Below are positions 164-52,702 of a stretch of DNA of 64,000 nt, one piece after another (positions within the stretch are counted from its first letter, which is position 1; each line of letters begins with the position of its first letter). The DNA comes from a bacterium (GTDB taxonomy: Bacteria; UBA10199; 2-02-FULL-50-16; JAJFLM01): assembly GCA_965216315.1 (NCBI GenBank), contig CBDCFN010000015.1, forward strand, positions 352,001 to 416,000. Direction: 5' to 3'. Under the pieces are notes generated by a model, which searched no databases, was not told the DNA's origin, and saw nothing but the letters and a program-made list of their open reading frames with translations. Both the position numbers and the translations under genes were made by a program.

Positions 164-189
164 CAACTATGCGAAATTTTAGTCGATAA
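164..189 (+). promoter_or_regulatory. sigma28-like promoter motif copy 1 (CAAC-N14-GTCGATAA)
   Basis: CAAC 164-167, 14-nt spacer, GTCGATAA 182-189; same geometry at 8 other sites. Confidence 0.6.
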
Positions 190-244
190 GGCCTGTGCTT
201 GCCGATTCTTTCACTTGTCGTGGGGACAAGCGGAGGAAATTTGC

Positions 245-1192
245 ATGTCTTTATTTACCAGTAGTGTTTCCCTGAATGCAATGGCGCTGGCCAGTGCGTC
301 ATCGGCCGTTCCGCTGCTGGAGAGTCCTGCTATCGGATCTTTCCTCGATGCCTTTGCGGCCTCGCCCGCAACGGGCCAGCTGATCGTGCCGCGGGTCACC
401 GCGGATCCGAGCCGCGCCAGCGGATTTCACGTTGAAGCGACACCGCTGACGGGGCGCAATGGGGCGCGCACGGTACGACTCATTCAAGAGCTGGCGGCAG
501 GCTTGCCCGAGGCTGATTTTCCGTTCGGTCGGCCTGCGTTGTCACCCGCGAGTGGGGATTGGGAGCTGGCATATCGGAAGTTGGAAGGACGCTGCACGCT
601 CTTCTTTCAAGCACCTGGTCGCCGCATCGATCTGTGCTATCGCCCGAACGAGCCCTTGGCACGCGCGGTCGTTGTCTACGGTGGTGAGACCGCCAATGTC
701 CGGCAGACCGTGACGATTCAAGGGGCCAACTTCGCGGATATCGTTTTTAACAGCTATACCTTTGAAATTCGCTCTGTGCTGGTTGAAGGCCTGCGCACCT
801 ATCTCGGTCTGCCGACCAATACTCCCCTCGAAGCCGTTGCGCATAGGCTTCCCGTGGCCCTCGATTTTACGGAACAAGTGGAACCGAGTGAGAATCCCCT
901 GCATGAACCGGAGGAAGGGCTCCTGGAACTTGAGAGCCGCAGGGCGGGCCAAATTTTAACGCTGCGAGCCGGTCTCAATCCGGCGGACTTAATGTATTCA
1001 GACTATTCAGAAGAAGTCGGCCTTTGGCTCTACCCTGAAACGGAGACGGGTAAGCGCTTGACTCCCGCCCAACTCCAATTCTGGAACTGGGTCGCGTCCC
1101 AAGTCGAGCCCAGCGAAGAGGACGTTGCCGCCTACCGGGAACGCACCCGGGCGCGTTATCAAACGATTGCCGGCAATGGTGTCGATGCCTAA
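245..1192 (+). CDS. Orphan hypothetical protein with S/A-rich N-terminal leader
   Basis: Long ORF; first ATG at 245 (MSLFTSSVSLNAMALASASS); no recognised domain. Confidence 0.7.
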   Translation: MSLFTSSVSLNAMALASASSAVPLLESPAIGSFLDAFAASPATGQLIVPRVTADPSRASGFHVEATPLTGRNGARTVRLIQELAAGLPEADFPFGRPALSPASGDWELAYRKLEGRCTLFFQAPGRRIDLCYRPNEPLARAVVVYGGETANVRQTVTIQGANFADIVFNSYTFEIRSVLVEGLRTYLGLPTNTPLEAVAHRLPVALDFTEQVEPSENPLHEPEEGLLELESRRAGQILTLRAGLNPADLMYSDYSEEVGLWLYPETETGKRLTPAQLQFWNWVASQVEPSEEDVAAYRERTRARYQTIAGNGVDA

Positions 1193-1214
1193 AAGCTGCC
1201 AATTCGGGGCCGCG

Positions 1215-1589
1215 TCAAAAGGGCATGACGACTTGGGCATCCGTCTTACGCAAATTCCGGTCCAGAGTTAGCAGGGGGACGTCTTCGACCTTGGACAGGG
1301 CATAGGCAAAACAGTCTCCCAGATTGATGGAAAAGCGGAGTCGGGCCTGGGCCGCGATCGCGGCCAGTTCATTGGTCGGTGCGACGAAGCGAATACCTGA
1401 CGTCATTAATTCGTCTTTGAGTTTGGGAAAAAGTTGAGGCTGGTGATCTTCCAACAGGATGAGGAGCTCCGTTAAATTGATCAGGCTCATTCGCAGTAGC
1501 CCTCGGTTTTCTTCCATGAGGTTTGTCACCCAGGGCCCTTGTTCCTCCTTGAAAAATACGGCCATCAGGGCTGAAGTATCAATCACCAT
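1215..1589 (-). CDS. vapC: VapC-family PIN-domain toxin
   Basis: MVIDTSAL start, NLGDCFAYAL and LLTLD motifs; 124 aa. Confidence 0.92.
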   Translation of the reverse strand: MVIDTSALMAVFFKEEQGPWVTNLMEENRGLLRMSLINLTELLILLEDHQPQLFPKLKDELMTSGIRFVAPTNELAAIAAQARLRFSINLGDCFAYALSKVEDVPLLTLDRNLRKTDAQVVMPF

Positions 1590-1591
1590 GG

Positions 1592-1828
1592 TTAGGTCCA
1601 GAGATCATTATCATCGTTAAAGCGGGGCGTTTTGCTGCGTGGGGCGGCGTTGGCGAGCCCTAACCATTCATTAAAGTCACGCCCCTGTGCCGCCGCGAGG
1701 GCGTGTTCGGTGGCTTCGCGAACGGCCTTACGAATGGCCTCAGACTTTTGCCGAATGCCCGTGTGTTTCATATATTGGGCGAGATCCTTCGAAAATTCAG
1801 CGGTTACGTTGAGATTGAGCTGCGACAT
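1592..1828 (-). CDS. vapB: Antitoxin of the VapBC pair (ribbon-helix-helix-like)
   Basis: 78 aa directly upstream of vapC; KSEAIRKAVRE helix pattern. Confidence 0.75.
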   Translation of the reverse strand: MSQLNLNVTAEFSKDLAQYMKHTGIRQKSEAIRKAVREATEHALAAAQGRDFNEWLGLANAAPRSKTPRFNDDNDLWT

Positions 1829-1933
1829 GCATATATGTATATCATCTGTACATCAAGCAGGTCAAGACATACCCGCATGGGCCGTTTTTGAGTAAGTCCT
1901 TATAATAATTAGATAAACCACATTAGGAGTGAC

Positions 1934-6135: not shown

Positions 6136-6954
6136 TCAGGCGCGTCCGACGGGCTTTTCACTAATGGCAAGCTGGTCAGGCTCTTTGATGAGATAGGCCT
6201 CCGGGATGGGGACATAACCATTCGCGAAACCATGTTCCTCTCCCATCTTGATGAGTTGGCTGGCATCTCGGTGCAAGAGCAGCGCGCCGACGATGCCAAA
6301 ACCAAGTTGGGCTGGGGTGTGATCGATCCAGACGCCTTGTTGTGAGTTGAGCCAGCGGACACTCATGTCGTGCCAAGTGGAGAGCCCCATGATCGTACCG
6401 AGACCGTAGCCAAAGTAGCAGCGCAGACTCTGGCTGTGGCGCATGTCGTCCTCGATGGACCACTGCAGCTTGTAATAAGGGCGGCAGGGAGCCAAGGGAT
6501 CTTGAGTCTCCATCTCGTGGGTGCTGAAGCGGTGCATAGTCGCCAGGTAGTGTTGTTCATGGCGTTGGCCGTGGTAGACGAGGCTCGCACTGCGGTACAT
6601 TAGCGAGAGGACGTCCCGCATAAAATCAGAACGGGCCGCTCGAATCCAAGTATTCAGCTGGGCCAGCATGTCGCCGAGCTGTAGATAGACTGTCGTCCCC
6701 TTTGGAGGGGTATTGAGCAAGAACACCTGAGAGCAGGGGTGATCGCCCCCCAAGGGACTCCGCACACACGGGTGCCAGGGGCTGCGGGCGATGAGAAGGC
6801 TCAGTTGGTCGCGCAGAGTTCGCGCCACGTCGAGGATGGCTCGATAATTATCGGGGAGATGGAGGGGGGAACGACCCCATGGGACCACGTTGATGGCCTG
6901 GGCGCCAGCGAGCACGGTCGTCGCCTGAAATGCCATTCCTCCTAACAACACCAT
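6136..6954 (-). CDS. Orphan hypothetical protein, paralog of 8504..9310
   Basis: 272-aa ORF; shares QATTVLA N-terminus and Y-x2-W, GFG(I/L) and G(Y/F) C-terminal motifs with 8504..9310. Confidence 0.72.
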   Translation of the reverse strand: MVLLGGMAFQATTVLAGAQAINVVPWGRSPLHLPDNYRAILDVARTLRDQLSLLIARSPWHPCVRSPLGGDHPCSQVFLLNTPPKGTTVYLQLGDMLAQLNTWIRAARSDFMRDVLSLMYRSASLVYHGQRHEQHYLATMHRFSTHEMETQDPLAPCRPYYKLQWSIEDDMRHSQSLRCYFGYGLGTIMGLSTWHDMSVRWLNSQQGVWIDHTPAQLGFGIVGALLLHRDASQLIKMGEEHGFANGYVPIPEAYLIKEPDQLAISEKPVGRA

Positions 6955-6962: not shown

Positions 6963-6988
6963 TGATCGGATGAAAGCCCGAAAAGTTG
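6963..6988 (-). promoter_or_regulatory. sigma28-like promoter motif copy 2 (CAAC-N14-TCCGATCA)
   Basis: 8 nt upstream of ATG 6954. Confidence 0.6.
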
Positions 6989-7012: not shown

Positions 7013-7028
7013 TGTTCCACGTGGAACA
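7013..7028. promoter_or_regulatory. parS: parS centromere site
   Basis: Perfect palindrome TGTTCCACGTGGAACA near parAB. Confidence 0.93.
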
Positions 7029-7287: not shown

Positions 7288-7313
7288 CAACTTTTCGCCC
7301 TTTAGGCCGAAAA
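7288..7313 (+). promoter_or_regulatory. sigma28-like promoter motif copy 3 (CAAC-N14-GCCGAAAA)
   Basis: 9 nt upstream of ATG 7323. Confidence 0.65.
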
Positions 7314-7322: not shown

Positions 7323-8405
7323 ATGAGCTATCAAGGTGCCATCCTCTCAACCAGTCGAACCGCGGCGATCATGAACAGTTTTGTCGCTATGCCCCTGAGT
7401 GGCTCTGTCGGGGTGCCCGCGGCCCTTGCCGGGGGGACAGGCTTGAATGGAGTGATGCTGACGGATCAAAACGCGGCCGCCCTGGTCCAGTCGGTCGACA
7501 GCATGACTGCCGAGTCACGCCACCTGGAGGCGCTCCATGATGCCTGGGCACTGCCTCAGAACACGGCTCTTCTCGGCACAACTAATGATTGGTCGATTAG
7601 CGCCTTTCCCGTCCGCGAGTTTCAGTCATTTGATGATATCGATATCGGAGAGAGCCCCGAAGGACTCATTCTGCACGGTCCCCATAACCGGCGTGTCCGA
7701 CTCAATCTACTTAAAGAAGGCCTGGAGGTGAGCCTGGGGCTCAACGGTTCGATCGGGAAGGCCATCCAGACGGTTTTTATTGATTCGGCTCATCGGGTCT
7801 GGACGAGCAGTTATCATCTGGATTTCATGGGGCAAGCGGTCCAAGGCCTCCGCCATTATCTGCAGATTGACGGCGATGCTCCCCTCGCGGCAGTTGCCGT
7901 CTCACTGGTCGAGCAGATCGTCGCCTCTCAACAATTCGCGGGTGTCTCACTCGGTGAAATGACTCCAGGCCCGGCTGAAAACCCGAGCTCGGTTGCGCTC
8001 AGTTCAGAGGCGTGCGTGATTACCAATGGGCGCAGGGAGCATCCCGAGCCGGCCATAGAAATTACGGGCGAGGAGGGCGCCAATGGCTTTTTGACCTTAA
8101 CGATGAGGTGGGATGTCCGGCGCCCGACAGCTAAATCCGAACAGCGCCTGGTACCGCTGTCTCCAGCCGGCTTTAAACTCTGGCGGGGCGCTTCCCTGTG
8201 GGCACTCCACGAGCCGACGCTACAGGAGCAGGTGCAAGCGATTGTGGGCGACCAGATACACAGCCAAGTTATCGAACAAGTGGACCGGGTCGCTCGAGAA
8301 ATGCACAGGAGCATGCACAAGGAGCTTGCAGTGGATATTCGGGAGATTGCCGAGCAAATTATCCAGCGTGCGCTGGCGCCCAATGTGGGCAAAACAGAAT
8401 CCTAA
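7323..8405 (+). CDS. Orphan hypothetical protein with S/A/G-rich leader
   Basis: 360-aa ORF; possible weak similarity to 245..1192 (QGLRHYLQI..PLAAVA vs EGLRTYLGL..PLEAVA). Confidence 0.72.
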   Translation: MSYQGAILSTSRTAAIMNSFVAMPLSGSVGVPAALAGGTGLNGVMLTDQNAAALVQSVDSMTAESRHLEALHDAWALPQNTALLGTTNDWSISAFPVREFQSFDDIDIGESPEGLILHGPHNRRVRLNLLKEGLEVSLGLNGSIGKAIQTVFIDSAHRVWTSSYHLDFMGQAVQGLRHYLQIDGDAPLAAVAVSLVEQIVASQQFAGVSLGEMTPGPAENPSSVALSSEACVITNGRREHPEPAIEITGEEGANGFLTLTMRWDVRRPTAKSEQRLVPLSPAGFKLWRGASLWALHEPTLQEQVQAIVGDQIHSQVIEQVDRVAREMHRSMHKELAVDIREIAEQIIQRALAPNVGKTES

Positions 8406-8427: not shown

Positions 8428-8443
8428 TGTTCCACGTGGAACA
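8428..8443. promoter_or_regulatory. parS: parS centromere site
   Basis: TGTTCCACGTGGAACA. Confidence 0.93.
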
Positions 8444-8467: not shown

Positions 8468-8493
8468 CAACTTTTCGAGGCGTTGACCGATCA
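8468..8493 (+). promoter_or_regulatory. sigma28-like promoter motif copy 4 (CAAC-N14-ACCGATCA)
   Basis: 10 nt upstream of ATG 8504. Confidence 0.6.
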
Positions 8494-8503: not shown

Positions 8504-9310
8504 ATGGTGTGGGTGGTGCAAACAGCAATGCAGGCGACGACAGTGCTCGCCAATGCGGCCGGAGCCGCGACGGTGATCAGCCCGCTGGCGCATGTGCCCC
8601 TGCAGGTACTCGATGAGGCCACGGAATCGTTGGCCGAGTCCGCCTTTAGCCTGACAAAACAACTCTCCTGTGAACTGAGCTATTGCGTGACCCAAACGGC
8701 CTGGGAGCCGGTGCCTCAAGCCGATTTTTCCCGTGCCCACAGTCGAGAGCTGGCACTGACGGGTGAAAGCCTCCATACGGGCAAACGCCGAAATGAGATC
8801 TTTTCCATCGGCCAGTACGCACGGCACCTGAGGCTTGACTGCTCGGATTCATTCATTGCAAATTGCCTCGGTCTGTTGGAGGCGAGCGCGCAACATTTGC
8901 TTCAGCTCGAGCGTTCGGACGCCGTATCGTTGGCGACTATTCTCCGGCGGCGGCTTCCCGATGCTCCAGAGCAAGCCATCCGCAGGGGGCCCGTTGATTT
9001 CTATGTCTTTAAGTGGGTGGATCAAGATAGTCCGCTGATCCTGGCGATCAAGGCCTTTATTGGGCTCAATATGGGCGAGCTGTGGCTCACGGAAGAGTGG
9101 CGCCTGATTAGGCAACGGCGTGAGGCTGTCCTGTTGGCGGATGCGGATCGCGACGTCGGTTTTGGCCTTTATGCGGGGCTGGGACTCTGGCTTGATCACC
9201 CGCAGTATTTGGACTTGTTAAGCGAACCAATGGCACATAGGTCTGGGTTCATCACCCCGCGGAAAGACAGTCTCCAGTTCAATGGGGATTCGTTTACCCT
9301 CACTAAATAA
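8504..9310 (+). CDS. Orphan hypothetical protein, paralog of 6136..6954
   Basis: Start set at ATG 8504 (MVWVVQTAMQATTVLA) by alignment with the paralog and promoter position. Confidence 0.72.
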   Translation: MVWVVQTAMQATTVLANAAGAATVISPLAHVPLQVLDEATESLAESAFSLTKQLSCELSYCVTQTAWEPVPQADFSRAHSRELALTGESLHTGKRRNEIFSIGQYARHLRLDCSDSFIANCLGLLEASAQHLLQLERSDAVSLATILRRRLPDAPEQAIRRGPVDFYVFKWVDQDSPLILAIKAFIGLNMGELWLTEEWRLIRQRREAVLLADADRDVGFGLYAGLGLWLDHPQYLDLLSEPMAHRSGFITPRKDSLQFNGDSFTLTK

Positions 9311-9318: not shown

Positions 9319-9334
9319 TGTTCCACGTGGAACA
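9319..9334. promoter_or_regulatory. parS: parS centromere site
   Basis: TGTTCCACGTGGAACA. Confidence 0.93.
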
Positions 9335-9792: not shown

Positions 9793-10596
9793 GTGGCTAA
9801 AATCATTAGCATTTGTAACCAAAAGGGCGGCGTGGGCAAGACGACGACGGCCATTAATTTAGGGGCGAGCCTGGCCGCCGCTGAGAAGCGGACGTTAATC
9901 GTCGATTTTGATTCCCAGGCCAATACGACCGGGGGCTTGGGTCTCGCCAAGGGCGGTGATGGACTGAATAGCTACCGGACGGTGTTGGGCGAGGTGACGG
10001 CGGCCGAAGCGACTCACGACACCAATATTTCTTTTCTCAAAGTCATCCCGGCAACGATTGATTTGGTCGCTGCCGAAATCGAGTTGATTGAACAGCCACA
10101 GCGGGAAAGCCGCTTAAAACAAGCCTTGGCGCCGGTTGCCGATGATTATGACTACATTATTATCGACTGTCCCCCCTCTTTAGGCTTTCTGACGATCAAT
10201 GCCTTGGTTGCGTCAAATTCCGTGTTGATTCCGGTTCAATGTGAGTACTACGCCCTTGAAGGACTCAGCGATTTGATGCGGACCATCTCGCAGATTCGCG
10301 AAGAACTCCATCCGGCCCTGGAGATCGAGGGGATACTGTTGACGATGTCGGACATGCGCACCAGTCTCAGTCGTCAGGTCGAGGCGGAGATCCGCGAACA
10401 CTTTAAAGAGAAAGTCTTCAAGGTCCACATCCCGCGAAACGTGCGACTGGCCGAGGCACCGAGTCATGGCAAGCCGGTCCTGACCTATGACTTTCGTTCG
10501 AAAGGGGCCCAGTGCTACCTGGACCTGGCCAAAGAATTTCTTGCGTCACAACCTGCGTCATCCGCAGCAACGGGGGTGAGTCATGGAGCCGCGTAA
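9793..10596 (+). CDS. parA: Chromosome partitioning ATPase ParA/Soj
   Basis: NQKGGVGKTTT, IIDCPPSLG, PVQCEYYALEG, IPRNVRLAEAPSHG. Confidence 0.97.
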   Translation: MAKIISICNQKGGVGKTTTAINLGASLAAAEKRTLIVDFDSQANTTGGLGLAKGGDGLNSYRTVLGEVTAAEATHDTNISFLKVIPATIDLVAAEIELIEQPQRESRLKQALAPVADDYDYIIIDCPPSLGFLTINALVASNSVLIPVQCEYYALEGLSDLMRTISQIREELHPALEIEGILLTMSDMRTSLSRQVEAEIREHFKEKVFKVHIPRNVRLAEAPSHGKPVLTYDFRSKGAQCYLDLAKEFLASQPASSAATGVSHGAA

Positions 10597-11527: not shown

Positions 11528-11986
11528 ATGTTTGGACAAAAAGAATATGGTGAGGGGGGGGCAGACAGCCAGGTCAGCGCTTTGCTGGAGCCGGGTTGTG
11601 AGTTTGAAGGCAAACTGACCTTTCAAGATACGGTCCGCATCAATGGCCATTTTAGAGGGGAGATCTTTTCAGAAGGGACATTGATCGTTGGTGAAGGTGC
11701 GGTGATTGATGCACGGGTTGAGGTGGGGAGCATTATCATCAACGGCAAGGTCAATGGCGAGATTGAGGCGCAAGACCGGATCGAGATGCGTTGCCCCGCG
11801 CAGGTGCGTGGTGACATCAGTGCGCGCACCTTGGTTGTTGAAGAAGGCGTCGTTTTTGAAGGGGCGTGCCGCATGGGGGAGCCACCCATTATTAGTCAGC
11901 GGGACGGTGACGTCACCCAGCTCCATGCCGCTAACAGCGACGTGAGTGCCGACGAGGGTTTGGGCGAAAGCGGATCTTTAATTTAA
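11528..11986 (+). CDS. Bactofilin (polymer-forming cytoskeletal protein)
   Basis: EFEGKL, VRING, GTLIVGE, LVVEEGVVFEG beta-helix pattern; typical position after parB. Confidence 0.9.
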   Translation: MFGQKEYGEGGADSQVSALLEPGCEFEGKLTFQDTVRINGHFRGEIFSEGTLIVGEGAVIDARVEVGSIIINGKVNGEIEAQDRIEMRCPAQVRGDISARTLVVEEGVVFEGACRMGEPPIISQRDGDVTQLHAANSDVSADEGLGESGSLI

Positions 11987-17899: not shown

Positions 17900-17925
17900 C
17901 AACCTTTTTAGGCAGTGGCCGAAGA
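17900..17925 (+). promoter_or_regulatory. sigma28-like promoter motif copy 5 (CAAC-N14-GCCGAAGA)
   Basis: About 80 nt upstream of the megasynthase start. Confidence 0.6.
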
Positions 17926-18006
17926 GTTTGAGCTTGTGGGCGTCCCTCCTGGGTCGGACGGAATGCCTCAATATATTGTGCACTCGTTAAAGAAGGGGTA
18001 TTGGGC

Positions 18007-21000
18007 ATGCCTATTATTGGTTCCTCACTCGGGTTGGGAAACGCTGGGTTATTGGCTGCTGGAGGGGCGAGCCATAACGTTGGTCTCTTCCAAAGTTTCT
18101 TAGGACAAGCGGTTTCACAGGTCATCGCGTCCGATCGTGCCACGGAAGTTGTCGAGGGCTTGCTCTCACAACCCAATCACGGCACCCTTCTCCAAGAGTC
18201 CGGCATCCAGGCCGAGAGCAGTGAGGACATTCTCGAACAAATAGCCGGTTCCACGGAATATGCCCGCCGTGCCCTCGACAACAGGGAACTCCTCGAGGGG
18301 ATTATTGCCAGTTTTGTTACCCAGGGTCAGGTTGAACTGGGCGATGAGTTTGCGGTTCTCCTCAATCCCGTCACAGCGGGTGTCCATTTTACCGCTGCGG
18401 AGCTCGGAGGAATATACAGCCCCGTGGCGGGGACGGATGCGGGCGCGCGTTATGCGCAACCCCTCTCGCATGCGATTCAAACCGAGACCGCGACCCTGCG
18501 GAACGCCCTGAGTGAGGCGACGACTGCGACGCAGCGTTTAATGGATGCGCGTCATGTGGATGCCACGCAAGCGGCCGCAATTAACGCGGTGTGGACGTCG
18601 ATGGCACGCCTGGACCGGCTCCTCAACGTCGATGTCGTGCAGAAACCCGCCCGGCTGGGAGAAATCGATGAGCTCCAAAAGGCAACGGAGGCCTATCTGA
18701 GTGACTTAGGACTTCAACCGATGTCGCAGTTGGCGCTTGAGATGCGTGAAGGCAATTATCGATTCATGCTCCAGGCCCCGGGTCAGGCCAATGAATATAT
18801 TGGTCTGTTTAAACAGGTCTATGGGCGGTCGGATGTTGCCCGTCGTTTTGTCGACGAGATCGTGATTCCGGCGTTGCGCTCCGAAGGCATTGACGTCAAC
18901 GAATATCTGGACATGGATCCGGCCCAACTCAGCCTCGAGCAGAATAAAGCGGTCCTCAATAGCTCGCGTATTTCGCAGCCGATGATACTGGCGACGCAGC
19001 TGGCGCTGCTGGAAGAATTGAAGTCCTATGGCTTTGATCCGCAGTTTTTTACCGCGGGTTCCGGGCATTCCCAAGGGTTATTGTTGGCGTCGGTAGCGGC
19101 CGGCAAGACAGGTCCGGCTGAAGCCCTGCGCATTGTGGCTATTCACGGACGTGAGATGCAGAACGGCACCAAGGCGGCGAACACGAAGGTGCCGATGGTT
19201 TCCGTGCTGGGTATTTCGCGCATGGAAGCCGCGCGCATGAGTAATGAGATCAATTTGCACTTAGCGCTCGTCAACGGGATACCCGGTGAGACGGCTCCAC
19301 TCAATCCCTCACAGTTGCGCGAACTCAAGGAAAAGGCCGATTCCGATATGCTGTATGGCCGGCTTTTTCCGGTCGAAAAAATGGCCCAGGATCCGGCGTT
19401 GCGTGCGGCCTATCCTTTCTTTGCCCGTTATTTTAACCGCGATTTTCATCTGACGGACGAAGAGATTCGCAAGTTGGGTCTGCCGCGTGGCCTCAATGAG
19501 AGCGCCGCCTTTATCATTCGTGGTGACATGGAAACGACCTATACGGCACTGATCAATATGGAACCGAGTGATGGTTCCCGAACTCGCGGCGTCATGCCGG
19601 CGTTCATCTTTTCCGGGACGCATCAGGCTCAGGAGTTGGTGTTAGGATTATTGGGCAACAAACAAGCCGGAACCGAACCCCATCCCGCGTTTCGCAATGT
19701 CGGGTATAATTTTAATAAGAAAGAAGAGACGACCTTTCCCAAGACGGCAGTCTTGATCACCTCATCACCGTTCCATCATGCCGGGGAACAACGGGCTGCC
19801 TTTGAAAAATCCGTTGCGCGTGCCGATGAGACCCGTGGGGAGGCGACTTTTCCCGTCGTGCTCAACAGCGAGCCCGCGAGTTTTGCCGAACTCGGATTGA
19901 CGCCCCAGCAGGAGGCCCAGCGGATTACGGCGGAACAACATGTGCGCCACGTCGATTGGCCGGCAACGGTCGAAAAAATGCTGACTTTTGGCGATCAGAC
20001 GAAACCGGCTGTATTTGTCAGCATGGGAGACGGAGTGGTGGCGGGTTTTACCGCAGCGACAACCGCGGGTCGTGCGACGACGATTGCCGCGGCCAATAAA
20101 GATGGCAGTGGCTTTGCTCAACTGACTTCACGCAAATCCGCAGGGCTCCGCTTGAGGACCGCCCCACTGGCCGACCGCAGTATCTATGAGCCGATCGAAG
20201 CCCAGGTCTTGGCGGGGCGACCGAACGTCGATGGCCAGTATCTGGGGCCCATAGGCTATCTCTCCAGCGTCACACTCGGCAATGATAAGCAACGCCTGGA
20301 TCTGATTCGCCGCATCCGGAAGGTCGTCGATTTTTCGGATCCCATGCATCCCAAGTTCAATAACGATGAAATTCTAGCACGCCTGGGGGCCGAAGGACCT
20401 TATGGCGTGGCAGCGATGACGGGTCCAGGGACCTCTAAGCTCATCGGCGCCGTCGCCCGCGCAGGGCGGACCGCCTATCTCGCGGCGGGTAATTACCCGG
20501 GCAAGGCCCACCTGAATATTTCTATTAAGCAAGGCTTTATTACCGGACTTATTGATACCGCATGGGAAACAACCCGCAGTGCCGACCCCGCAACCGGCGA
20601 ACTTGATGCGGGGTCCCTGACCTATGGAGGCGAGCCGGTCGTACGCGGTTCGATTGAGACGTATTCGGACCGTGCTCAGACGGATGGTCAGTATCTGGGT
20701 GAGGCCCGCTTTGAAGGCCCGATGAAATCATTCGGCGTCAATCTCATGCATGCTGCCGGCGGCGGTGTTTTCAGTAAGGCGCAGTGTGATGCGACCGCTG
20801 AAATGATCGATCGCGGTCTCCCCATCGATAAGATCAGTGTGGGGATCTATCTGATCCAGGATAATGCGGAACTGCGCCGTTACATTCCTTTGTTGGCTCG
20901 CGGCGTGCGCTTTGCCCCGTTGCTTCCCAACATGAATGCGATTCGAATCTATCAAGATGAGCATATTCCTTACCTTAAAGAGGAGTTGAAAAAATACCTT

Positions 21001-24000
21001 GAGGGCGGGTGGCGCACCTTCAATGCCGATAACCCGGGTTATTATGAAAGTGACGCGATTCACAGCCGTTTTGCGGCGGCCCATCCGGAGTATTTCGGCA
21101 AGGGGGGCTATGACCGCTTCATGGCCGACCATCCCGATCTCCTCATGAAGATGAGAGAGGGGAATGACGGGGGCGGACACAATTCCCCTGAAGGCACCCC
21201 GACCTATCGTCTCGTGCAAGACGCAGTGGTGAATCCGAAGAATGAGAAGACCAAAAATATTTCCACCGGGGGGTATTCTTTCGGAGTTGCGGTGGCCGAT
21301 GCTTTGTTGTCCGGAGCGGCTGGCGTTCAGGCGGGGAGTGTCTTTGAGATCACTCAGGAAGCTGACCTTCCCTACAAGGTGAAGGCCTTGATCATGGAGG
21401 TGGCGGACCCGGACTCCCCACGTGAAGCGACGAACATTGTCAGTGAATTTGGTAAGCCGCTCAATGTTGCGGTGAATGCCTTTAGTCAGGCCTATGTGGA
21501 TTTGGTGGCCACCGATGACGCCGAAGAGATTCTGGATATACTGGCGCGGGAACCCGTCGACTCGGTACGTTTTCACCGCGAGTTCTGGAACAACGGCATT
21601 GAGACCGAAGATCCCGCGCTCAACTTTGTCATGAAAAACGAAGCGGTCTTCGAACCCATTTGGGATTTTCTCGTCGGCGATCGCCAGTCGGGGCGCCAAG
21701 CGGCCCTGGACGCCATCCGTAAGCTAAACGCCGAGGACGAGAAACGCTGCCATGCCAATTTCTTGAAGAAGCATAAAGATGAGTCAACGCGTCCCGCGTG
21801 GAACCCCACCGAGGGGAATGACAAGGCGCAACTGATTACATTTTATCGCGTGTTCCGGACCAACATGATCCAGAGCGGCGAGGTCGATCCCGAGTGGGCC
21901 TATGTCCTCGTCGGTCGTTCGATCACGCGCATGCCGCAACAGTTCTTAGAGCGCTTCAAGGCGGACGGAACCCTGCCGACCGTGAGCGAGTTTATCAATA
22001 CGATCGAGTCGGATGCCTTGAGCTACCTGACTCAGTTGATGGGGCGCGCGTTGACCGTGCAGGCCCAACGGGCCCAGGCCTATGAGCTACAATCTTTTGA
22101 TCCGGTGCCGAATGTCCAGATTTTCCGGCAGGCCAGCGAAGAGGGTCAACAGACCTTGCGTGTCCGTCCGCTTGGGGCGATGAGTGAAGATGCGCTGGCC
22201 TCCTTTCGTCGTGCTGCGAAGGCACAGGGGTATGGTCACGTGGCGGAGGTATTGCGCCAGGGCTCTGAATTTAATCGCTTCTTTACCCCGAGAGCGGGAC
22301 GCGAGTTCTACTTCGACCTGCAAGCGACGGATGGCCAGAGTCCTCAGCTGGTGGCCGTTCGTATCCTCCAAGACGGCAAAGAGATCGCACGTGTCGAGTC
22401 ACCATCAGCGACGGAAGTCACCATGTCTTATGAAGTGCCCCGGGATGCGTATGGAGAGCTGGAGCCGCGAACCCTCACGTATCAATACAATCTTCAAGAG
22501 CCAGTTCCAGGCGTTCATGAATGGCGCCTGGATCGCGAGCGCGTCCAACGCGAATCGACCGCTATTTTTGGCGAGTTGTTGACGGGGACGCAGCTGGATT
22601 ACACGGGTCGCACGATCAGTGACACATATACCGATCAACGCCCGGTGAGTGAGGAGCGAGTGCGCGAATATGCGCGTATCGTCGGTGAGGGCTATGACGT
22701 CTTTCATCGCGAAGGTGTCGTACATCCCGGCTTGGTTGGGGTTGAGAGTCTGCGCAGTGCGGTCCTCGCCAGCAATCATCCGGATTTCCAGACCGATCGC
22801 TTCCAACTGTTGCATGCCTTCTTTAATCAGAGTTTTGGAACCTCGGCATCTGTTGGGAGCGACGTCCAAGTGGCCTCTCGTAATACCGAGGCCACCGGAC
22901 TCGATAACGGGGGCTTCAGTCAAGATGCACGCATTGTCACGCGCAATGCGGCAGGTGACGTTGTCAGTGAAGTCGATACCGGCTTTGTCAATCTCGACCC
23001 GAGGAGTCGTTTTACGCCGCTGTCGGAAAGCATTGATCCTGAGCTGGCGGATCCCGCGACGGCCGAGACGCTGACAGGTTTTGCGGCCTATCCGATCTGG
23101 CAGCCCGAGCGGGTGGTCAAGGTCACGCGGCAGGATATTCTCGATTATACGATGTTCGATCCCAATGCGATCCACCATGCCGATTTCGTGGCTCAGATGG
23201 CGGGATTGGATGATGGGATTATTGCCCAAGGCATGCTGGTTCACGGCAAGATGGTGTCACACATGTTGGGGGGGTATCTGCAAGGAGACCTCGATCGTGC
23301 CGTTTCGGTCAAGACCACGTTTACCGGCAAGGTTCTCCCCGGCGAAGACCTGGATCTGGTTGCCTACCGCATCGGTCAGCAAGGCGAATACGATATCTTA
23401 CGGTTTGACGCGACCAACGCCGATGGCAATACGGTCGTGACCCAGGAGTGGAAAGTCCGGCGCAATGGTCAGATCGTGGCCTTTCCGGGACAGGGTTTTC
23501 AAAAGGCGGGCATGTGGACGAGCGTTACGAACCGCTACCAGGCACCGCAGGACGCCAAACCCGAGCTGAAGGCGGCCTATGAGCGCGCGCAGCAAGCACA
23601 ACGAACCTTTCTAAAGCAGGTGGATCAGCATAGTCTTGAGAGGTGGGGCTTTAGGCTCTCCGATGTCGTCAAACATGCGCCCAAGACGTTGAGTTTTAAC
23701 GTCAGCGAAGATTACGCCGGTGAGTCCTATCGAGGCCGGTCAAAAGGGGAGCGGCTGACGGTTCGCAACGCCAGCCAAAATGGCATCCTTAGCGAAACCG
23801 ATTTTACCCAGCCGGCGCTGTTTGTTGCCTATGTCCTCGATTGGATCGGCATGCGCGAGTTAGGCAAGATTCATCCGGATGCGGATATCGTTTATAACTC
23901 GCTCGGCAAGATTGCGGCGCTGGTTGCGGTCGGGGCCATCTCACCGGTTGATGGTCTTCAATTGGCCCGGGCCCGTGGTGTGTTCATGGGCGAGGTCAAG

Positions 24001-27000
24001 GGGGCCTTCGGGGTCGCGAGCATCAAAGGGAAGAATGGTCTGTGGGATGTCGTGGAAAGAGAAGCCCAGAAGGTGCGCGATGAATTGGGTCCTGACTATA
24101 ATGTTCACGCGACCAACCAAAATTCAACGCGGCAAGTCGGCTTTGCCGGGACGGAAAAGGGTGTCGAGGCCCTGGTCCATCGCCTCAGTGATCTTGGTAT
24201 CGACGGGTTGAAGACCCGGCGTCTCAATGCGATTGAAAACCCCTTTCATACGGACGCCTATGCCGATGCCGCCGAACGGATGTATCAATACCTGCAGGGA
24301 CTGGAGATCGACACATCACGCCTGCACCACATGATTTTAAACCATACCGGCGAGCGCTTTGCACCCGGAGACCAGGATATACGCCGTGCCCTCGCCAATC
24401 ACATCATGATGCCGATTCGGGTCGCCGATGGGCTTGAAACCGCCATTCGCGCCAATCCGAGCGCCGAACTGTTGGAGCTCGGCCATGTGACTGAATTGAC
24501 CAAGCGCGCTGCTGAAACGGTGGATGATCGAGGTTTGAATCACACGGGGGCAAGTCATTCCGCAGCGGATTCCTTTGCAGCGCTGACGTACGCCGAGCCC
24601 GATGACAAGATTGAGGTGGAGCAGCGGGCCGTGCGCTTGACGTCCGCGACGCCGCAGGCCGCTCCGGCAGCCGCCCCCGCAGCACAAGCGGCGGCAGCCG
24701 CGCCCGCAGCGGCAGTAGCCGCCCCCGTGGCGAGTGCCGCTGTGAGTGGAAAATATATTGAACCGCCCGCAGCCGGGACTCCCGAACACACGGCCTTACA
24801 GCAGGACGTGCGGGTGAGCTCCGCGATGCTGCTGACGGTTATGCCGGGGGCTTATAACAATATGCGCAGTGGCGCCCTGGCCCCCGATGACGCGGATTTA
24901 GTCGCGGCCGGGACCAATGCCCTGGTGACTTTAGGACCCGGGGCGATCGAGGGGCTTCAGACCGAACTCAAACACCGCGAAGACGCGCGGGATCGTTCCA
25001 CTGGCGCCGATAAGAAGATCCAGGAATTCATCGTCACGGCGCTCAATGCGGCGATCGAACGCTTGAAGGCCGCTCGCAAGGAGTTGGAGGCGTCCAAAGG
25101 CGGCGGCGGAGGGGGAGTCGACGTCGATTCACCGGAATTCCGGAGTGGTGTTGCGCAGGTCATGGATGCCGAAGCTGAAAAATTGGGTTTTGTCAGGACC
25201 TCAGCGGAGCAATTAAGCGACGCATCCAGCTACATTGCTGAAGTGGGTTCTGACGGCACGCTCTATCAACCCGGTGGGGTCAAGCAGGTGCAGGCCCAAG
25301 CGATCGCCGATGAGATCGCGACCAATACCTCCAAGCGTTTTGTTCGGATGATGACGGGTTCTTATAATGGCATCCGTTTCCACATGGATCAGATCCAGCA
25401 CAATGGGGCGGAAACCAATCTGTTTAACCTGGCCCGCGAACTCCGCGTGGCCGACAATGCCGGAACCCTCGCTAACATGTCGCAGGCGGCGATAGCACGC
25501 CGACGCCGGCGTTTGGCCAATCAGTTGGATGCGGATGGCGCAGCGCGTGCCGAAGCGCTGGCCGATCTGGCGGAGAGTCAAGGTTATGGGGCCGCCGCTG
25601 AAGTGTTGCGCGGTGTCGCGGCCGAAACCCGTGAGAGTTTGCAGGTCGGTGGATTACCACCGCTTCATCACTTTGAAATCACCGATTTTGATCCCCTTTA
25701 CGGCACGACTCAAATGGGTCGCGATGTATCCCGCGATATGTCGCCTGAGGAATCGCTGCAGTATCTCAAGGCGAACCAGCTGATCGACCCGGAACTGGCC
25801 GATCGTATCTTGGATTTCGTGACGGGCAAGGTCTCGTTGCGGGGTGAACGTGTCCTTGTAATGGGGAGTGGTACGATCTCAACACCCCTGATTGGTTTTC
25901 TCCTGGAGCAGGGGGCCCACGTTATTATGACGACGACGCGTCAGCGCGAACGCGTCAATCAGGAGGTCCATGACCTGTTCCAGGAATACGCCTCGCGCGA
26001 GGCGCGCTTGGAGGTCAAGACCGAGTTCGGCTTTAATCCGACCAACTACGTCAAATTGCGTGATGAAATGCGGTTGGATGGCTTTGCACCGACCCTTTTT
26101 CTCAATGGGGCCGGTCTGGGTGACTACGGTGCGTTTGCGGACGTTAGTACCGAAGACTGGCATGCCGTTTCCGAGGCCCTCGTGCGAGCACCCCTCTACA
26201 TGACCCGACTCTTGGCCAACTGGTATCTCCAGGAACAAAACGGCGTGACCTATACTTATATGGAACTCGCCAGTCCGGCCGCGGCCCGGCCTCTGCCTGG
26301 CAGTGGCTCTTATCGGGCGGCGAAGAATGCCCTCGATAACTTCGGCTGGGTCGATCATGTCGTTGCCTCTGAGGGGATGCGCCATGCCGACGGCACCCCG
26401 GTCGCGCGCCAAAAACAGCTCGTAGTCGGCTGGGTGAATGCCCCGGCCGATGCCAGCGGGAAATTGATGAGCGAGATGCGCAATAACTCGATGGCCGTCG
26501 TCGACCGCGCCCGTGAGGAAACGAATGTCCTGTTACATATCTTTAATGGTCAAACCATGGCGTCTGGGGCCCTTGGTGTCCTTCATCCGGCGCATCGAGG
26601 TCAGTCGGAACGTCTGGAGGCCTTAGGAAACTTTGATCATCCGCAATTAGAAGAAAATGGGCGCCTGGCGCAGATTATGGATGCCGTCAATAAGGCGGAA
26701 AAAGAGAAACACGACCAGGCGAAACGCCAGAACGGTAACAAGCCCCTGTCGGTTGCCGCGTCGCTACGTCATGCGGGCCGCACCGAGGAGGCCGATCGTC
26801 TTGAGGCCGCGCAACGCGAGGCCCGTGAAGTGGCGGAGGCCCATCCGTTTCAACATGGCTTGTTGTTCCGTGTTTGGGACATGCCTTTTTACATTCGTGA
26901 TGCGGCCAATGATGTCGATACTTTTGATGCCAACCGCCATGTCGAGGCCAGTAACGATGATCTCGTCGCCGTCGGTGTCGCCGGCACGGGTCCTTATGGC

Positions 27001-31544: not shown

Positions 31545-31570
31545 GTTTCGGCGAGCGGGACGGACTGTTG
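31545..31570 (-). promoter_or_regulatory. sigma28-like promoter motif copy 6 (CAAC-N14-GCCGAAAC)
   Basis: 7 nt upstream of ATG 31537. Confidence 0.62.
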
Positions 31571-32918: not shown

Positions 32919-34220
32919 TCAGGGCGTCAAGGGGAGTGCGCGCAAGGCATATTCCTCGAGCAATTTCTCCATCTCCCGAAGCTGGCCGGAAAAATAGCGC
33001 CGGCGTTTCTCGTCGACGATTTCGGTCAGAAAGCGATAATCAAAAATGGGTTGGGTGTCAGGCCGTGTGCCGTGTTCACAGGAGCGGATATAGGAGGCGG
33101 CCTGACTGCAGTAGGTGTCGAAGGCGTTGAGGACGGTATCGGGCAGCTCGGTTTTCCCTTGTTTCTTTGCCTTGCGTGGTTCGTATACCAAGTTTCGCTG
33201 GATTTCCCCCCAGCGGAAGTTGCCCATCGTCATGACCTGGATCTCTGCGGCGGGGCGTGGGAGGCGCATGCTGCCCTCAAAGCTCTTGAGGATGTTGATA
33301 TGGCTCGCCTGATACCCGCTCGGATAGTCATGGGTTTCCACCTGATGAATTTGATAGGCGTAGGGTTGCTGTTCATCGGGATCCCCAAAGCGGGAACGGG
33401 TCAGGGCCTCTTCAATGCGTTTAATCGTTGGACCGACATCCATCGGTCCGGAGACGACGACACGCAGCCCGGCCAGGTCGAAGATGTCATTCATGTTCTT
33501 CATGCCGCGGGTGACGAGTTTTCTGAGGACCCCTTGCTTGATGCGGCCAAAGATCAGCTCCGTGCCGGGCATCCAACCGACTTCTCGGTCGAGCAGGCTT
33601 TGCAATTCCTGGAGCCCCAGTAAATAGGGCTCGAGAAAATTGGCTTCAGCCTCGTTGCGTGACTTGCGATAGCTCAGGAGCTGTTCAAACAAGAAACGGG
33701 CAAAGTGTTCGTAGTCGGAGCCCAAGTAAGACAGGGTGCGCGCCATTCCCTCGATCAAGTGACTCGCGAAACAATCCGCGTCACGCAGCCGGTTGACCTC
33801 TTGCAACGCGGCGAGGGTGAGTTCCGCCTCGCGAACGACCTCGTGAGGGGCCTTGTTTTCGGCGTGGACTTGGCTCAACAACCATTGCTCGATCATCGTA
33901 TGGATACGGGCGGTCGGGACTTCGTCTCCGGGCCGCGCATTTTCGACGAGTTCCGCGAACTCAGCGGTGATCCGGTGGGCCATGTTCTGGAGGACTTCGG
34001 CGTCACCATTGCGAAACATGGTCGGGACCAGAAAATGGGCCGGTTGGTTGAGGTGCTCCTGCAAGGGCTTGGAACCGGCCGGTAGCTCCCAGGGCCGGTT
34101 GGTCAGGACGACGGCCGGCTGTCCATTGACGCTCGGCTGAATCACCGTGTGCGGATTCAGCAGGCTTGCACCCATCGTTGCTGCAGCGGATGCCGGAACT
34201 ATGAAATACTGAAAAGACAT
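32919..34220 (-). CDS. RelA/SpoT synthetase-domain protein (small alarmone synthetase-like) with novel N-terminal region
   Basis: GRIK, DLAGLRVV, SGYQASHI, EIQVMT motifs; no HD, TGS or ACT domain seen. Confidence 0.82.
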   Translation of the reverse strand: MSFQYFIVPASAAATMGASLLNPHTVIQPSVNGQPAVVLTNRPWELPAGSKPLQEHLNQPAHFLVPTMFRNGDAEVLQNMAHRITAEFAELVENARPGDEVPTARIHTMIEQWLLSQVHAENKAPHEVVREAELTLAALQEVNRLRDADCFASHLIEGMARTLSYLGSDYEHFARFLFEQLLSYRKSRNEAEANFLEPYLLGLQELQSLLDREVGWMPGTELIFGRIKQGVLRKLVTRGMKNMNDIFDLAGLRVVVSGPMDVGPTIKRIEEALTRSRFGDPDEQQPYAYQIHQVETHDYPSGYQASHINILKSFEGSMRLPRPAAEIQVMTMGNFRWGEIQRNLVYEPRKAKKQGKTELPDTVLNAFDTYCSQAASYIRSCEHGTRPDTQPIFDYRFLTEIVDEKRRRYFSGQLREMEKLLEEYALRALPLTP

Positions 34221-34229: not shown

Positions 34230-34255
34230 TTTTCGGCAGCTTGTCGCCAGGGTTG
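34230..34255 (-). promoter_or_regulatory. sigma28-like promoter motif copy 7 (CAAC-N14-GCCGAAAA)
   Basis: 9 nt upstream of ATG 34220. Confidence 0.65.
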
Positions 34256-34381: not shown

Positions 34382-34407
34382 CAACTTTTGGCAAAGAATT
34401 GCGACAA
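34382..34407 (+). promoter_or_regulatory. sigma28-like promoter motif copy 8 (CAAC-N14-TGCGACAA)
   Basis: 9 nt upstream of in-frame GTG 34417; weakest -10 match. Confidence 0.5.
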
Positions 34408-50268: not shown

Positions 50269-50279
50269 GGTAGCCTCCT

Positions 50280-50858: not shown

Positions 50859-50886
50859 GGTAGCCTCCGTTCTGGCTATTAGGTCT

Positions 50887-50902
50887 TGCAAAACTTATGC
50901 CA
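50887..50902 (-). promoter_or_regulatory. sigma54 promoter
   Basis: Minus strand TGGCATAAGTTTTGCA. Confidence 0.7.
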
Positions 50903-51069
50903 TGATCACCGGACCATAAATTAAATAACTTATTGAAATTATTTAATAAATTTACTCTTCTTGTGCATGGCCCCATTATCATTCTGATAAAATTATCAAA
51001 TTGATAATATTTGTCGTTGGCCCGCTACGGAAAAAGTGAAGGAAATTGGCGAGTTAGCAAAACGGTGTT

Positions 51070-51085
51070 TGGCATAGATCATGCA
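51070..51085 (+). promoter_or_regulatory. sigma54 promoter
   Basis: TGGCATAGATCATGCA, GG-N10-GC. Confidence 0.62.
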
Positions 51086-51108
51086 AAGACGGCAGGGAGG
51101 AGGATGCG

Positions 51109-51486
51109 ATGCAACATATTAAGTGGGTCATGGCCGTAGCCATCTTGGGGTCCTGTTTCGTTATTAACGTCCCGTCCGGAGTTGAGGCGCGGTCCGATCT
51201 AGTCGTCGGGAGCGGTGAGCTGAGCGAGGCACAAAAACAAAAAGAGGTCTGCGGGAAGTTACGCGATGAGTGTAAGCAGAGCTGCAAGCGTAATTACGAC
51301 CACGAACTCAACCTCGCGCGTGAAGAGGCCAAGCGCGGTGCGATAGCCACGATCATCTTTGGGGAGTCTGCGGATCCCCAGGTGGAACTCGATGCCGCCC
51401 TGGAAAAATGTAAAGGCAATTGTGATGAGGATTTTACCTGTTGCCTCGAACAGCAGGATCCGCTGGGCTGCTTTTACGGGATCTAA
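51109..51486 (+). CDS. Small secreted Cys-rich hypothetical protein
   Basis: Signal peptide; C-x6-C-x3-C and C-x3-C-x5-CC patterns; GGAGG RBS. Confidence 0.75.
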   Translation: MQHIKWVMAVAILGSCFVINVPSGVEARSDLVVGSGELSEAQKQKEVCGKLRDECKQSCKRNYDHELNLAREEAKRGAIATIIFGESADPQVELDAALEKCKGNCDEDFTCCLEQQDPLGCFYGI

Positions 51487-51527
51487 TCGCTACCTAATTA
51501 CGAATTGCTCCATCTGAATAGAGACTT

Positions 51528-52667
51528 TTAGAAACTTCGAACAAAACTGATTCGTGAAGTTATGGGCTTAAAGCCGAGCGTGCGATTTAGGCTGATCATA
51601 CCGGTATTGCTCGACTCATTAGCGACGAGGATAGTTGGAATTCCCTGTTCTTGTGCGTAGGCAATTGTTCGTACTTTGAGGGCGAGTGCAATTTGGCGGC
51701 GGCGGTAAGCCGATTTCACTCCGGTGAGGTGGCTCCAGGCATGTTGCATGACTGCGCGGCCGAGCAGACTGCTCGTGCCGATATAATTCCCTTCGTGAAG
51801 GGCGACAAAGTAGGCGTCGGGTGAGAAGCCTGGGCTTTGAAGAATAACCTTTGAAAAGCTCTCAAAACTCATCTTGAGCGTGCCCTCTGGAAAAGGAGCG
51901 TCACTCAAGAGTTCGTTTTCAAGGTCATAAAGCTTACGGTCGCGTTCCGGATCAGCTGCCAGCTCGCTCATCGATTTGATTTCTATTCCCTCGTTATTCA
52001 ATCGAGTCTCATGTTCTTGATAAGGCGCCAAATTAGCCAGAGCGACGGGCAAAGTCATGACGACGTCACGCATACGCTCTCGGAAACCGCGTTGTTTCAG
52101 AAAGGCGATTCCCGCCGACGATTCCTGGTTCAGAACGACGCGGATGGTTTGAGGATTGAGAACTTGCAGTGCCGTCATGATCGTGGAGAAAAGGCGACTT
52201 CCTATTCCGCGCTTTTGAAATTGCGGGTGAACAAAGATCTTTATTGTGTATTTGTCGGGATGATAAACGATATATGGCTGATCATATTCAGCAAAAGCGA
52301 TGATTTCACCCTCGTGCCTGACGACCCAGCGCTGAAGGCGGCAGCGAGGATCCCGACTCACATCAAAAAAACGGATTTCGTCAGCAGTGAGTGGACGTTC
52401 AGGATAAGCGATATTTTGAAGTACACTGATCGCAGGGGCGTCGATAGGGCGATAGAGTTGGAGCGGATAAGCCCGGTTTCGAACTGCCTGGATTGTGTTT
52501 GTGCGCTGAAAGGCGAGATTGCGTTGATGTTGGGTGGCCAGCAGCGTCGGAGGTCCCTCAAAATGAAAGCTGTCCAGGCGGCGATAAGGACACGCGGTTT
52601 CCACAGGCGGTAACAAGGCCGTCGTGATTCCGAAACCGCTGAGAGAAGTTAGCAGGGGTGAGCTCAT
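51528..52667 (-). CDS. Tandem GNAT acetyltransferase with S/T/L-rich leader
   Basis: VHPQFQKRGIG, TGVKSAYRRRQIA, N..M..LN..LGF; start at ATG 52667. Confidence 0.88.
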   Translation of the reverse strand: MSSPLLTSLSGFGITTALLPPVETACPYRRLDSFHFEGPPTLLATQHQRNLAFQRTNTIQAVRNRAYPLQLYRPIDAPAISVLQNIAYPERPLTADEIRFFDVSRDPRCRLQRWVVRHEGEIIAFAEYDQPYIVYHPDKYTIKIFVHPQFQKRGIGSRLFSTIMTALQVLNPQTIRVVLNQESSAGIAFLKQRGFRERMRDVVMTLPVALANLAPYQEHETRLNNEGIEIKSMSELAADPERDRKLYDLENELLSDAPFPEGTLKMSFESFSKVILQSPGFSPDAYFVALHEGNYIGTSSLLGRAVMQHAWSHLTGVKSAYRRRQIALALKVRTIAYAQEQGIPTILVANESSNTGMISLNRTLGFKPITSRISFVRSF

Positions 52668-52676
52668 CGTGATGCC

Positions 52677-52702
52677 GTATCGGCTGTTGAAACACAATGT
52701 TG
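52677..52702 (-). promoter_or_regulatory. sigma28-like promoter motif copy 9 (CAAC-N14-GCCGATAC)
   Basis: 9 nt upstream of ATG 52667. Confidence 0.65.

Follow-up and report, generated by a model that had tools for sequence, protein, structure and literature searches.

A FliA/WhiG-type promoter motif with a GCAAC −35 box points to a regulon of putative type III secretion cargo in a UBA10199 bacterium

The window analysed here is a 64,000-nucleotide stretch (G000:C15:352001-416000) of the 2.96-Mb assembly of a bacterium of the UBA10199 lineage. It contains nine copies of a bipartite motif, a CAAC box followed at a fixed distance by a box close to CCGA(T/A)NA, each lying upstream of a gene (Table 1). 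All nine of the copies listed in a first-pass annotation of this DNA, which took them for promoters, are present, with weight-matrix scores of 14.2–19.5. The spacer, described there as an invariant 14 nt, is indeed fixed, but CAAC-N14-CCGAWNA has no matches and the real spacing is CAAC-N15-CCGA; the figure of 14 arose because an optional G was counted into the second box. That box departs from CCGA(T/A)NA at three of the nine sites (164, 31570 and 34382; sequences in Table 1). Within the window, CAAC-N15-CCGA is observed 12 times where 2.74 are expected, and CAAC-N16-CGAWNA 11 times where 1.27 are expected, counts that none of 100 shuffles reached in either case. The CCGATAA box taken by itself shows no excess there (9 matches, 8.2 expected).

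Measured from the last A of the second box, the start codon follows after 7–10 nt at seven of the nine sites, as had been noted, and the position of the motif resets the start of at least four open reading frames (ORFs), to 8504, 31537, 34417 and 52667. Six of the nine downstream products have no Pfam family, one is RelA/SpoT-like, one is a GNAT protein and one is a type I fatty-acid-synthase-like protein of 3856 residues. The products of sites 164 and 31570, neither with a Pfam family, have the N-termini MSLFTSSVSLNAMALASA and MLPVCTQSTILASSSLLGG, respectively. At site 164 the leader is ~48 nt long, with GGAGG 8 nt before ATG 245, and an alternative upstream TTG lies at 25 nt. Upstream of gidA, gidB, parA, parB, the atp genes, tatC and smpB there is no site with a score of at least 15, in line with the earlier remark that housekeeping genes in this stretch are not preceded by the motif. 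Two matches reaching that score in the window are intragenic, at 10120 (parA) and 46857 (acyl-CoA dehydrogenase), and look like chance.

Table 1 Motif sites and palindromes in the window (distances in nt past the second box; positions are those of the window)
Feature	Position	Strand	Score	Start codon or relation to promoter	Downstream product
Promoter N15 (CAAC..TCGATAA)	164..189	+	17.1	ATG 245, 55 nt past box	315-aa orphan
Promoter N15	6963..6988	−	19.5	ATG 6954, after 8 nt	272-aa orphan 6136-6954, no Pfam family
Promoter N15, divergent from 6988(−)	7288..7313	+	18.7	ATG 7323, after 9 nt	360-aa orphan 7323-8405
Promoter N15	8468..8493	+	19.5	ATG 8504, after 10 nt	268-aa orphan 8504-9310
Promoter N15	17900..17925	+	19.0	start 75–81 nt on, leader ~70 nt	3856-aa protein 18001-29571
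Weaker promoter (CCGAAAC)	31545..31570	−	14.2	ATG 31537, after 7 nt	561-aa orphan
Promoter N15	34230..34255	−	15.0	ATG 34220, after 9 nt	433-aa RelA/SpoT-like-domain protein
Promoter N15 (GCGACAA), divergent from 34255(−)	34382..34407	+	16.0	GTG 34417, after 9 nt	516-aa orphan
Promoter N15	52677..52702	−	17.8	ATG 52667, after 9 nt	379-aa GNAT acetyltransferase-domain protein
16-bp palindrome TGTTCCACGTGGAACA	7013..7028			centre 32.5 nt upstream of CAAC of promoter 6988(−)	
16-bp palindrome TGTTCCACGTGGAACA	8428..8443			centre 32.5 nt upstream of CAAC of promoter 8468(+)	
16-bp palindrome TGTTCCACGTGGAACA, third copy	9319-9334			just past stop of 8504-9310 gene	

The motif is by no means confined to the window. 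The genome holds 99 exact copies of CAAC-N15-CCGAWNA, compared with 15–37 at each of the 15 other spacers from 8 to 23. A genome scan with a weight matrix, which the first-pass annotation had proposed as a check, was made with a background-corrected matrix (the mean of the other spacers subtracted) and gives 228 sites with a score of at least 15 at N15, compared with 20–61 at spacers shifted by 1–4 nt. A matrix re-estimated without supervision from the entire genome came to follow coding periodicity and was discarded. The intergenic share of the N15 sites is 163/228, while intergenic DNA, that is, DNA outside longest-ORF calls, makes up 11.4% of the genome. At spacers −4 to −1, +3 and +4 the intergenic sites number 1–10 of 20–43; at +1 and +2 they rise to 30/61 and 22/51, and these high shares indicate that the two longer spacers hold real sites too. 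The motif is oriented strictly toward the downstream gene, and the spacer sequence is degenerate between the fixed boxes. The regulon thus comprises about 200 promoters, not nine.

The corrected consensus is CAAC(G)-15 nt-[C>G>T]CGA(T>A)(A>G)A. Expressed as excess over background, the −10 box reads [C 74, G 45, T 32] C G A [T 53, A 21] [A 37, G 26] A, and its CGA core bears out the earlier identification of this box with the sigma-28 element GCCGATAA. A G or an A precedes CAAC and a run of T follows it, giving a −35 box of GCAAC(T)TT. The usual −35 box of sigma-28 is not enriched: TAAA-N15-CCGAWNA has 16 matches genome-wide, equal to background.

The distance from the motif to the gene shows a sharp peak. 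The first in-frame start of a called gene lies 5–14 nt past the box at 80 of the 228 N15 sites, whereas control spacers give 4–20 of 122–201. The commonest distances are 7 nt (23 sites), 6 nt (13), 10 nt (12) and 9 nt (10), and the start codon is ATG at 67 of these 80 close-start sites. Ten of the 80 have a short GGAG-like word; most of the 80 leave no room for a Shine–Dalgarno sequence. The available portion of a cryo-EM study of the sigma-28 open complex of Pseudomonas aeruginosa numbers the boxes of the fliC promoter as (−36)TCTAAAG(−30) and (−15)GCCGATAA(−8) (PMC12784957). On this numbering, 7 nt between the box and the ATG would place +1 on the A of the ATG, and the mRNAs of close-start sites would therefore be leaderless. 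The N15 class has CAAC at −33 to −30, with two A's kept at −32/−31, which is canonical sigma-28 geometry; CAAC had been equated with TAAA, but it aligns instead with AAAG at −33 to −30. The near-leaderless starts reported for the window reappear as a genome-wide peak of distances that is retained in relatives, the 5′ ends being predicted from the geometry, and leaderless mRNAs would be made from about one third of the N15 sites. At called longest-ORF starts in general, a GGAG peak 5–8 nt upstream is found at 341 of 2271, and the sigma-70 −10 box (TANNNT) shows no clear peak 5–9 nt upstream (15–63 at all offsets, with crude start calls). Given this difference, and within the limits of a crude test, the leaderless design looks regulon-specific rather than genome-wide.

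The genome encodes five sigma factors of the sigma-70 family, namely RpoD, RpoH, two extracytoplasmic function (ECF) sigmas and a 299-residue FliA/WhiG-like sigma, and sigma-54 is also present. Paralogs of fliA had been suggested as something to look for; a FliA/WhiG-like sigma is there, but as a single copy. The seven best matches of this protein among solved structures, which are all those with E ≤ 1e-12, are WhiG or FliA. Its region 4.2 helix reads LSKSW(T/V)SRLH in 43/43 of its relatives, whereas solved WhiG and FliA proteins have (T/S/G)ESRVSQ(I/L)H at the corresponding helix. S224 and Q228 of the sigma-28 helix contact bases, according to the part of the cryo-EM study available (PMC12784957). 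By alignment, and assuming a numbering offset of five residues, the base-contacting S224 is kept in the 299-residue sigma and the position of Q228 is an arginine. The first-pass proposal of a FliA/WhiG-like sigma with altered −35 specificity therefore fits what is found, since the clade-specific helix differs from that of FliA/WhiG and the −35 box is GCAAC(T)TT; that the one change would account for the other is suggested by the sequences. The FliA-like sigma was present in 21/21 genomes searched, at 54–81% identity, and its relatives come from uncultured 'Deltaproteobacteria', 'Myxococcota' or unclassified metagenome-assembled genomes, several of them labelled UBA10199.

The gene of the 299-residue sigma (C16:350511-351410) lies between sctJ and sctL-N-O-P-Q-R-S-T in a T3SS (type III secretion system) cluster, the order of which is SctV, SctD, SctJ, sigma, FliG_C-like, SctL, SctN, SctO, FliK-like SctP, FliM/FliN-like, FliO, SctR, SctS and SctT. 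Three small proteins encoded beside the sigma gene have no Pfam match. The single FHIPEP gene of the genome is inside this non-flagellar cluster, and neither Flagellin_N nor Flg_bb_rod has a match in the genome, so far as flagellin and rod genes are concerned. The suggestion of an 'attack or infection' programme, made from the window, agrees with a sigma gene so placed. Promoter sites in the cluster are found at C16:347330, 349486, 360552, 362887, 368179 and 370761. A site with a spacer 2 bp longer precedes the small operon holding the FliA-like sigma, and in the loci of relatives, that of G009 included, there are matching sites at ~1.1 and 3.3 kb upstream of the gene for this sigma. A 717-residue gene directly 3′ of sctT has an N15 promoter with 10 nt to the ATG and an N-terminus of the type described below for the regulon. 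One promoter type thus stands before both the apparatus operons and the scattered genes for putative substrates. In one relative's locus an NtrC-type sigma-54 activator gene (L045:7978-9408(−)) is inserted immediately upstream of the gene for the FliA-like sigma and opposite to it in strand, and the input to this sigma may differ between lineages.

Those cluster sites with a spacer 1 or 2 bp longer and with Shine–Dalgarno leaders (C16:347330, 349486, 368179 and 370761) precede apparatus and small-protein genes. In the T3SS loci of relatives (n = 45), N17 gives 80 hits, in conserved places, compared with 5–27 at other shifted spacers and 23 at N15. Genome-wide, the N15 sites precede 98 proteins with uncharged N-termini, 11 with Sec-like N-termini and 87 others, and the N17 sites 3, 13 and 24, respectively (Fisher p of 1e-5 for Sec-like and 1.5e-7 for uncharged); perhaps about half of the N17 hits at the threshold used are chance. 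N17 promoters (GCAACTC...N...CCGATAA) are found, for example, before proteins with Sec or lipoprotein signals and ordinary leaders at C16:630393, 661666, 2034456 and 2035747 and at C15:44928 and 294069. The counts suggest that genes for the envelope and the apparatus are set apart from cargo genes by the length of the spacer.

The proteins of the regulon, taken as the 180 genes that have a site no more than 100 nt upstream, often share a characteristic N-terminus. At most one charged residue is present in positions 2–25 of 98/180, compared with 115/2091 of the other called genes, and Sec-like N-termini are found in 8/180. Ser, Thr, Ala and Leu are enriched in this segment and Lys, Glu, Asp and Arg are depleted. 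The uncharged N-terminus occurs in 57/80 of the close-start, predicted leaderless class and in 38/95 of the leadered members; because the leadered members have it as well, leaderless translation cannot by itself explain it. In a Pfam scan (E ≤ 1e-5) of 85 of the 183 candidates, those in 20 fetched regions, 60/85 had no Pfam family. Members that could be assigned include a Ser/Thr kinase, an adenylate/guanylate cyclase, a patatin, GGDEF, RtcB, acyltransferase, LamG and subtilase proteins, and further members are enzymes in which the catalytic domain begins 85–200 residues in, behind an N-terminus of the uncharged type. The orphan products with uncharged N-termini are probably secretion substrates, and we read the N15 products as T3SS cargo because the gene after sctT shares both their promoter and their type of N-terminus. 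Genes for two DUF4423/TIGR02147-type regulators (C16:97715-98599 and 105078-105926) both have the motif upstream, which would place this regulator family downstream of the sigma.

The motif is conserved in 20 related genomes from 15 families. GCAAC-N11-21-CGATAA is enriched in 20/20 (30–115 matches, against 2–23 for a reversed control), and GCAAC-N16-CGATAA gives 11–73 per genome against 0–3 for the control, again in 20/20. An ATG lies 5–10 nt past the latter at 168/607 sites in relatives and at 16/47 here, where we estimate the chance rate at ~9%. The proteins themselves evolve fast: the product of the gene starting at 7323 is matched in 2/20 relatives and that of 32919-34220 in 4/20. Those orthologs that exist, at family level and with 36–41% identity, retain the promoter. 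The G001 ortholog of the 7323 gene still has both divergent promoters, at 10 and 7 nt from their ATGs. Upstream of the G002 ortholog of the 32919-34220 gene (41% identity) the motif is retained at 9 nt from the ATG, and in the G001 ortholog of that gene the motif is followed by a leader of ~60 nt.

The reading that we favour, with a probability of about 0.72, is that the motif is a promoter read by the FliA/WhiG-like sigma of the T3SS cluster, with ~200 promoters in all, the N15 class serving cargo genes that are often leaderless. The genome's only FliA/WhiG-like sigma, encoded in the T3SS cluster, would bind these promoters, recognising the GCAAC(T)TT −35 box through its clade-specific region 4.2 helix together with a −10 box of canonical GCCGATAA type. 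The main class, CAAC-N15-CCGATAA with ~160–190 sites, would drive fast-evolving and mostly orphan putative cargo of the T3SS, that is, candidate effectors; the first ~25 residues of these proteins are uncharged, with Ser, Thr, Ala and Leu in abundance. The minor class, with a spacer 2 bp longer, would drive apparatus operons, including that of the sigma itself, and Sec or lipoprotein proteins, with Shine–Dalgarno leaders.

A number of points weigh against this assignment. The best NCBIfam family of the 299-residue sigma, TIGR02479 (FliA/WhiG), scores 133 bits, under its curated cut-off of 189.6, and the anti-sigma FlgM (PF04316) has no match at E ≤ 1, although a divergent analogue is conceivable. 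The cluster has no secretin, and sctU is elsewhere in the genome. Transcription starts and leaderless status are both drawn solely from geometry, and gene starts are our own crude longest-ORF calls (2271 genes), so that start-linked counts are approximate. In G005, G007, G013, G015 and G020 only 0–1 of 11–35 sites have a close ATG, at or below chance; as these five of the 20 relatives lack the excess, the leaderless design is widespread rather than universal. Some members, RibBA, PanD and an amidase among them, are ordinary enzymes, which may be chance hits or the sign of a broader programme. That one sigma reads two spacers 2 bp apart is assumed; the sole support for it is G009, which has N17 sites near its sigma gene and no ECF sigma. 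Finally, what marks the N-termini is a bias in composition and no defined signal, and by the consensus generally given GCAAC with AAC-N16-CG is as ECF-like as it is sigma-28-like.

The last of these points opens the way to a different sigma. ECF promoters carry AAC at −35 and CGT at −10, and a GCAAC or GAAAC −35 box with ~16 nt to CG resembles the promoters of Bacillus subtilis SigW and SigM, so that one of the two ECF sigmas of the genome might be the reader. We regard this as very unlikely. The third letter of the −10 core is A and not T (CGT gives 13 matches against a background of 12), and the extended GCCGATAA is a sigma-28 signature; the motif is, moreover, not found upstream of either ECF gene here. 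Queries with both ECF sigmas found no match in 8/20 relatives (G003, G004, G006, G007, G009, G012, G016 and G019, 91–99% complete). A Pfam region-2 (Sigma70_r2) scan of five of the ECF-negative genomes found only RpoD and the FliA-like sigma in G004, and only RpoD, an RpoH-sized sigma and the FliA-like sigma in G009, with no ECF-sized hit in either. The motif is strong in both genomes (115 against 7 control matches in G004, 57 against 4 in G009), which leaves the FliA-like sigma as the reader, and it is this sigma that we infer to bind. More improbable still, to the point of being hardly credible, is that the motif is a transcription-factor binding site or a dispersed repeat and not a promoter at all. 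The copies at 6988 and 8468 are not independent, having ~45 nt of identical or nearly identical upstream flank in common as if duplicated together with it, and promoter status is predicted here from sequence; the other seven sites in the window have unrelated flanks, however, and two boxes at a fixed distance around a degenerate spacer, strict orientation, a sharp peak of distances to the start, and a sequence and geometry matching sigma-28 promoters all speak against this reading.

A closer competitor accepts the sigma but not the cargo: the regulon would be a general programme for a phase of the lifestyle. On this view the uncharged N-termini, whose bias is one of composition only, would have another role, in membrane association, in a different export route or in meeting the needs of leaderless translation. 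In Bdellovibrio, FliA drives 92/140 attack-phase promoters, many of them non-flagellar, as stated in the accessible part of that study (PMC3627812), and the present regulon holds DUF4423 regulators, LamG lipoproteins, a protease and metabolic enzymes, a mixture that suits such a programme. We nonetheless consider it unlikely, as the gene of the sigma is part of the T3SS cluster both here and in relatives' loci, Sec-like signals are rare in the N15 class (11/196), and the gene directly after sctT has the same promoter and type of N-terminus as the dispersed members.

If the T3SS-cargo reading is right, a doubtful further step would be to see in the sigma a relic of the flagellar type, kept in an early-type, secretin-less T3SS, with a hierarchy set by promoter geometry: N17 for the apparatus and the Sec-dependent envelope proteins, N15 for leaderless cargo. 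Leaderless initiation would then let ribosomes load on nascent transcripts, coupling transcription and translation to secretion. As to the targets, the GGDEF, RelA/SpoT-like and RtcB members act on bacterial-type signals, hinting that these could be bacterial prey and not eukaryotic hosts.

Some further features of the window may be recorded. The proteins of 8504-9310 and 6136-6954 are distant paralogs (22% identity, E 2e-9), and the control region of this pair is far better conserved than the coding sequences. The palindrome TGTTCCACGTGGAACA has three copies in the genome, every one in the window (Table 1); the two promoter copies lie at about −65.5 from the predicted start, and a local regulator probably binds there. 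In the 3856-residue protein of 18001-29571(+), Pfam recognises acyltransferase, MaoC dehydratase, enoyl-reductase-like and short-chain dehydrogenase domains, and the N-terminus is uncharged. The RelA/SpoT nucleotidyltransferase domain of the 32919-34220(−) protein is a weak match (PF04607, E 6.6e-8), and its fold is reminiscent of small alarmone-synthetase-type toxins. A PIN-domain gene (1215-1589(−)) adjoins the first regulon gene, a bactofilin gene (11528-11986(+)) lies directly 3′ of parAB, and two genes for B12-binding radical SAM proteins (52794-56527(+)) are divergent from the GNAT gene of the regulon. The G+C content is 56–59% in positions 1-36000 and 51–54% in 36001-64000, and that of the small contigs C1–C7 is 40–48%.

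A literature search found, in the library covered, no description of the T3SS, the sigma or the regulon of the UBA10199 lineage, nor any paper on the biology of the lineage. The motif offers a catalogue, obtained from sequence only, of the probable secreted arsenal of this uncultured lineage, with some 200 genes in the present genome and tens in each of the relatives, which span 15 families. It would tie the regulatory logic of flagella (FliA) to a non-flagellar T3SS, which bears on the origin of the injectisome from flagella. The two −35 boxes and their helices, GCAAC with KSWTSR and TAAA with ESRVSQ, form a natural pair for the study of how sigma-28 reads this element. The regulon is also one in which predicted leaderless translation goes with one sigma factor and not with a whole genome.

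Among known systems, the class-3 flagellar promoters of sigma-28 (FliA/SigD/WhiG), TAAA-N15-GCCGATAA, have the same −10 box and the same geometry, going by the portion of the structural study available (PMC12784957). The promoters described here differ from them in the GCAAC −35 box, in the changed helix, including the position of Q228, and in having a second spacer class. Set against the flagellar FliA–FlgM regulon, there are here no flagellin or rod genes and no FlgM match, and there are ~200 promoters, one third of them predicted to be leaderless. HrpL of plant-pathogenic Pseudomonas and Erwinia is a T3SS-linked sigma that uses a single two-box promoter for apparatus operons and dispersed effectors alike, and the hrp box can accordingly be used to list effectors. 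HrpL is, however, an ECF (group 4) sigma, its box is GGAACC-N15/16-CCACNNA and its mRNAs are leadered; the present regulon works like that of HrpL, with a sigma of a different family. In chlamydiae, non-flagellated bacteria with a T3SS, Shen et al. reportedly described in 2006 late-gene promoters of sigma-28, used according to developmental stage. The chlamydial sigma-28 is said to have few targets, a TAAA-like −35 box and no leaderless design, and we know of no report of its gene inside a T3SS cluster.

Bordetella has a T3SS sigma, BtrS, with an anti-sigma, BtrA, that is itself secreted by the T3SS, BtrS being an ECF sigma in the part of the source available (PMC10732220). BtrS/BtrA and FliA–FlgM, so far as these sources describe them, are possible models for the gating of the present sigma by secretion, FlgM itself not having been found here. 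The system closest in its biology is the attack-phase regulon of FliA in Bdellovibrio bacteriovorus, the promoter of which is given as TTAAG-N16-CCGATA in the accessible part of Karunker et al. 2013 (PMC3627812); the term 'leaderless' is absent from that paper as available. Bdellovibrio is flagellated and its FliA, on the same partial account, still drives flagellar genes, whereas the sigma described here lies in a non-flagellar T3SS cluster and differs in −35 box and helix. What the two have in common, as far as that account goes, is that a former 'deltaproteobacterium' uses a promoter of the sigma-28 type as a lifestyle switch for many non-flagellar, uncharacterised and secreted proteins, secretion being probable in the present case.

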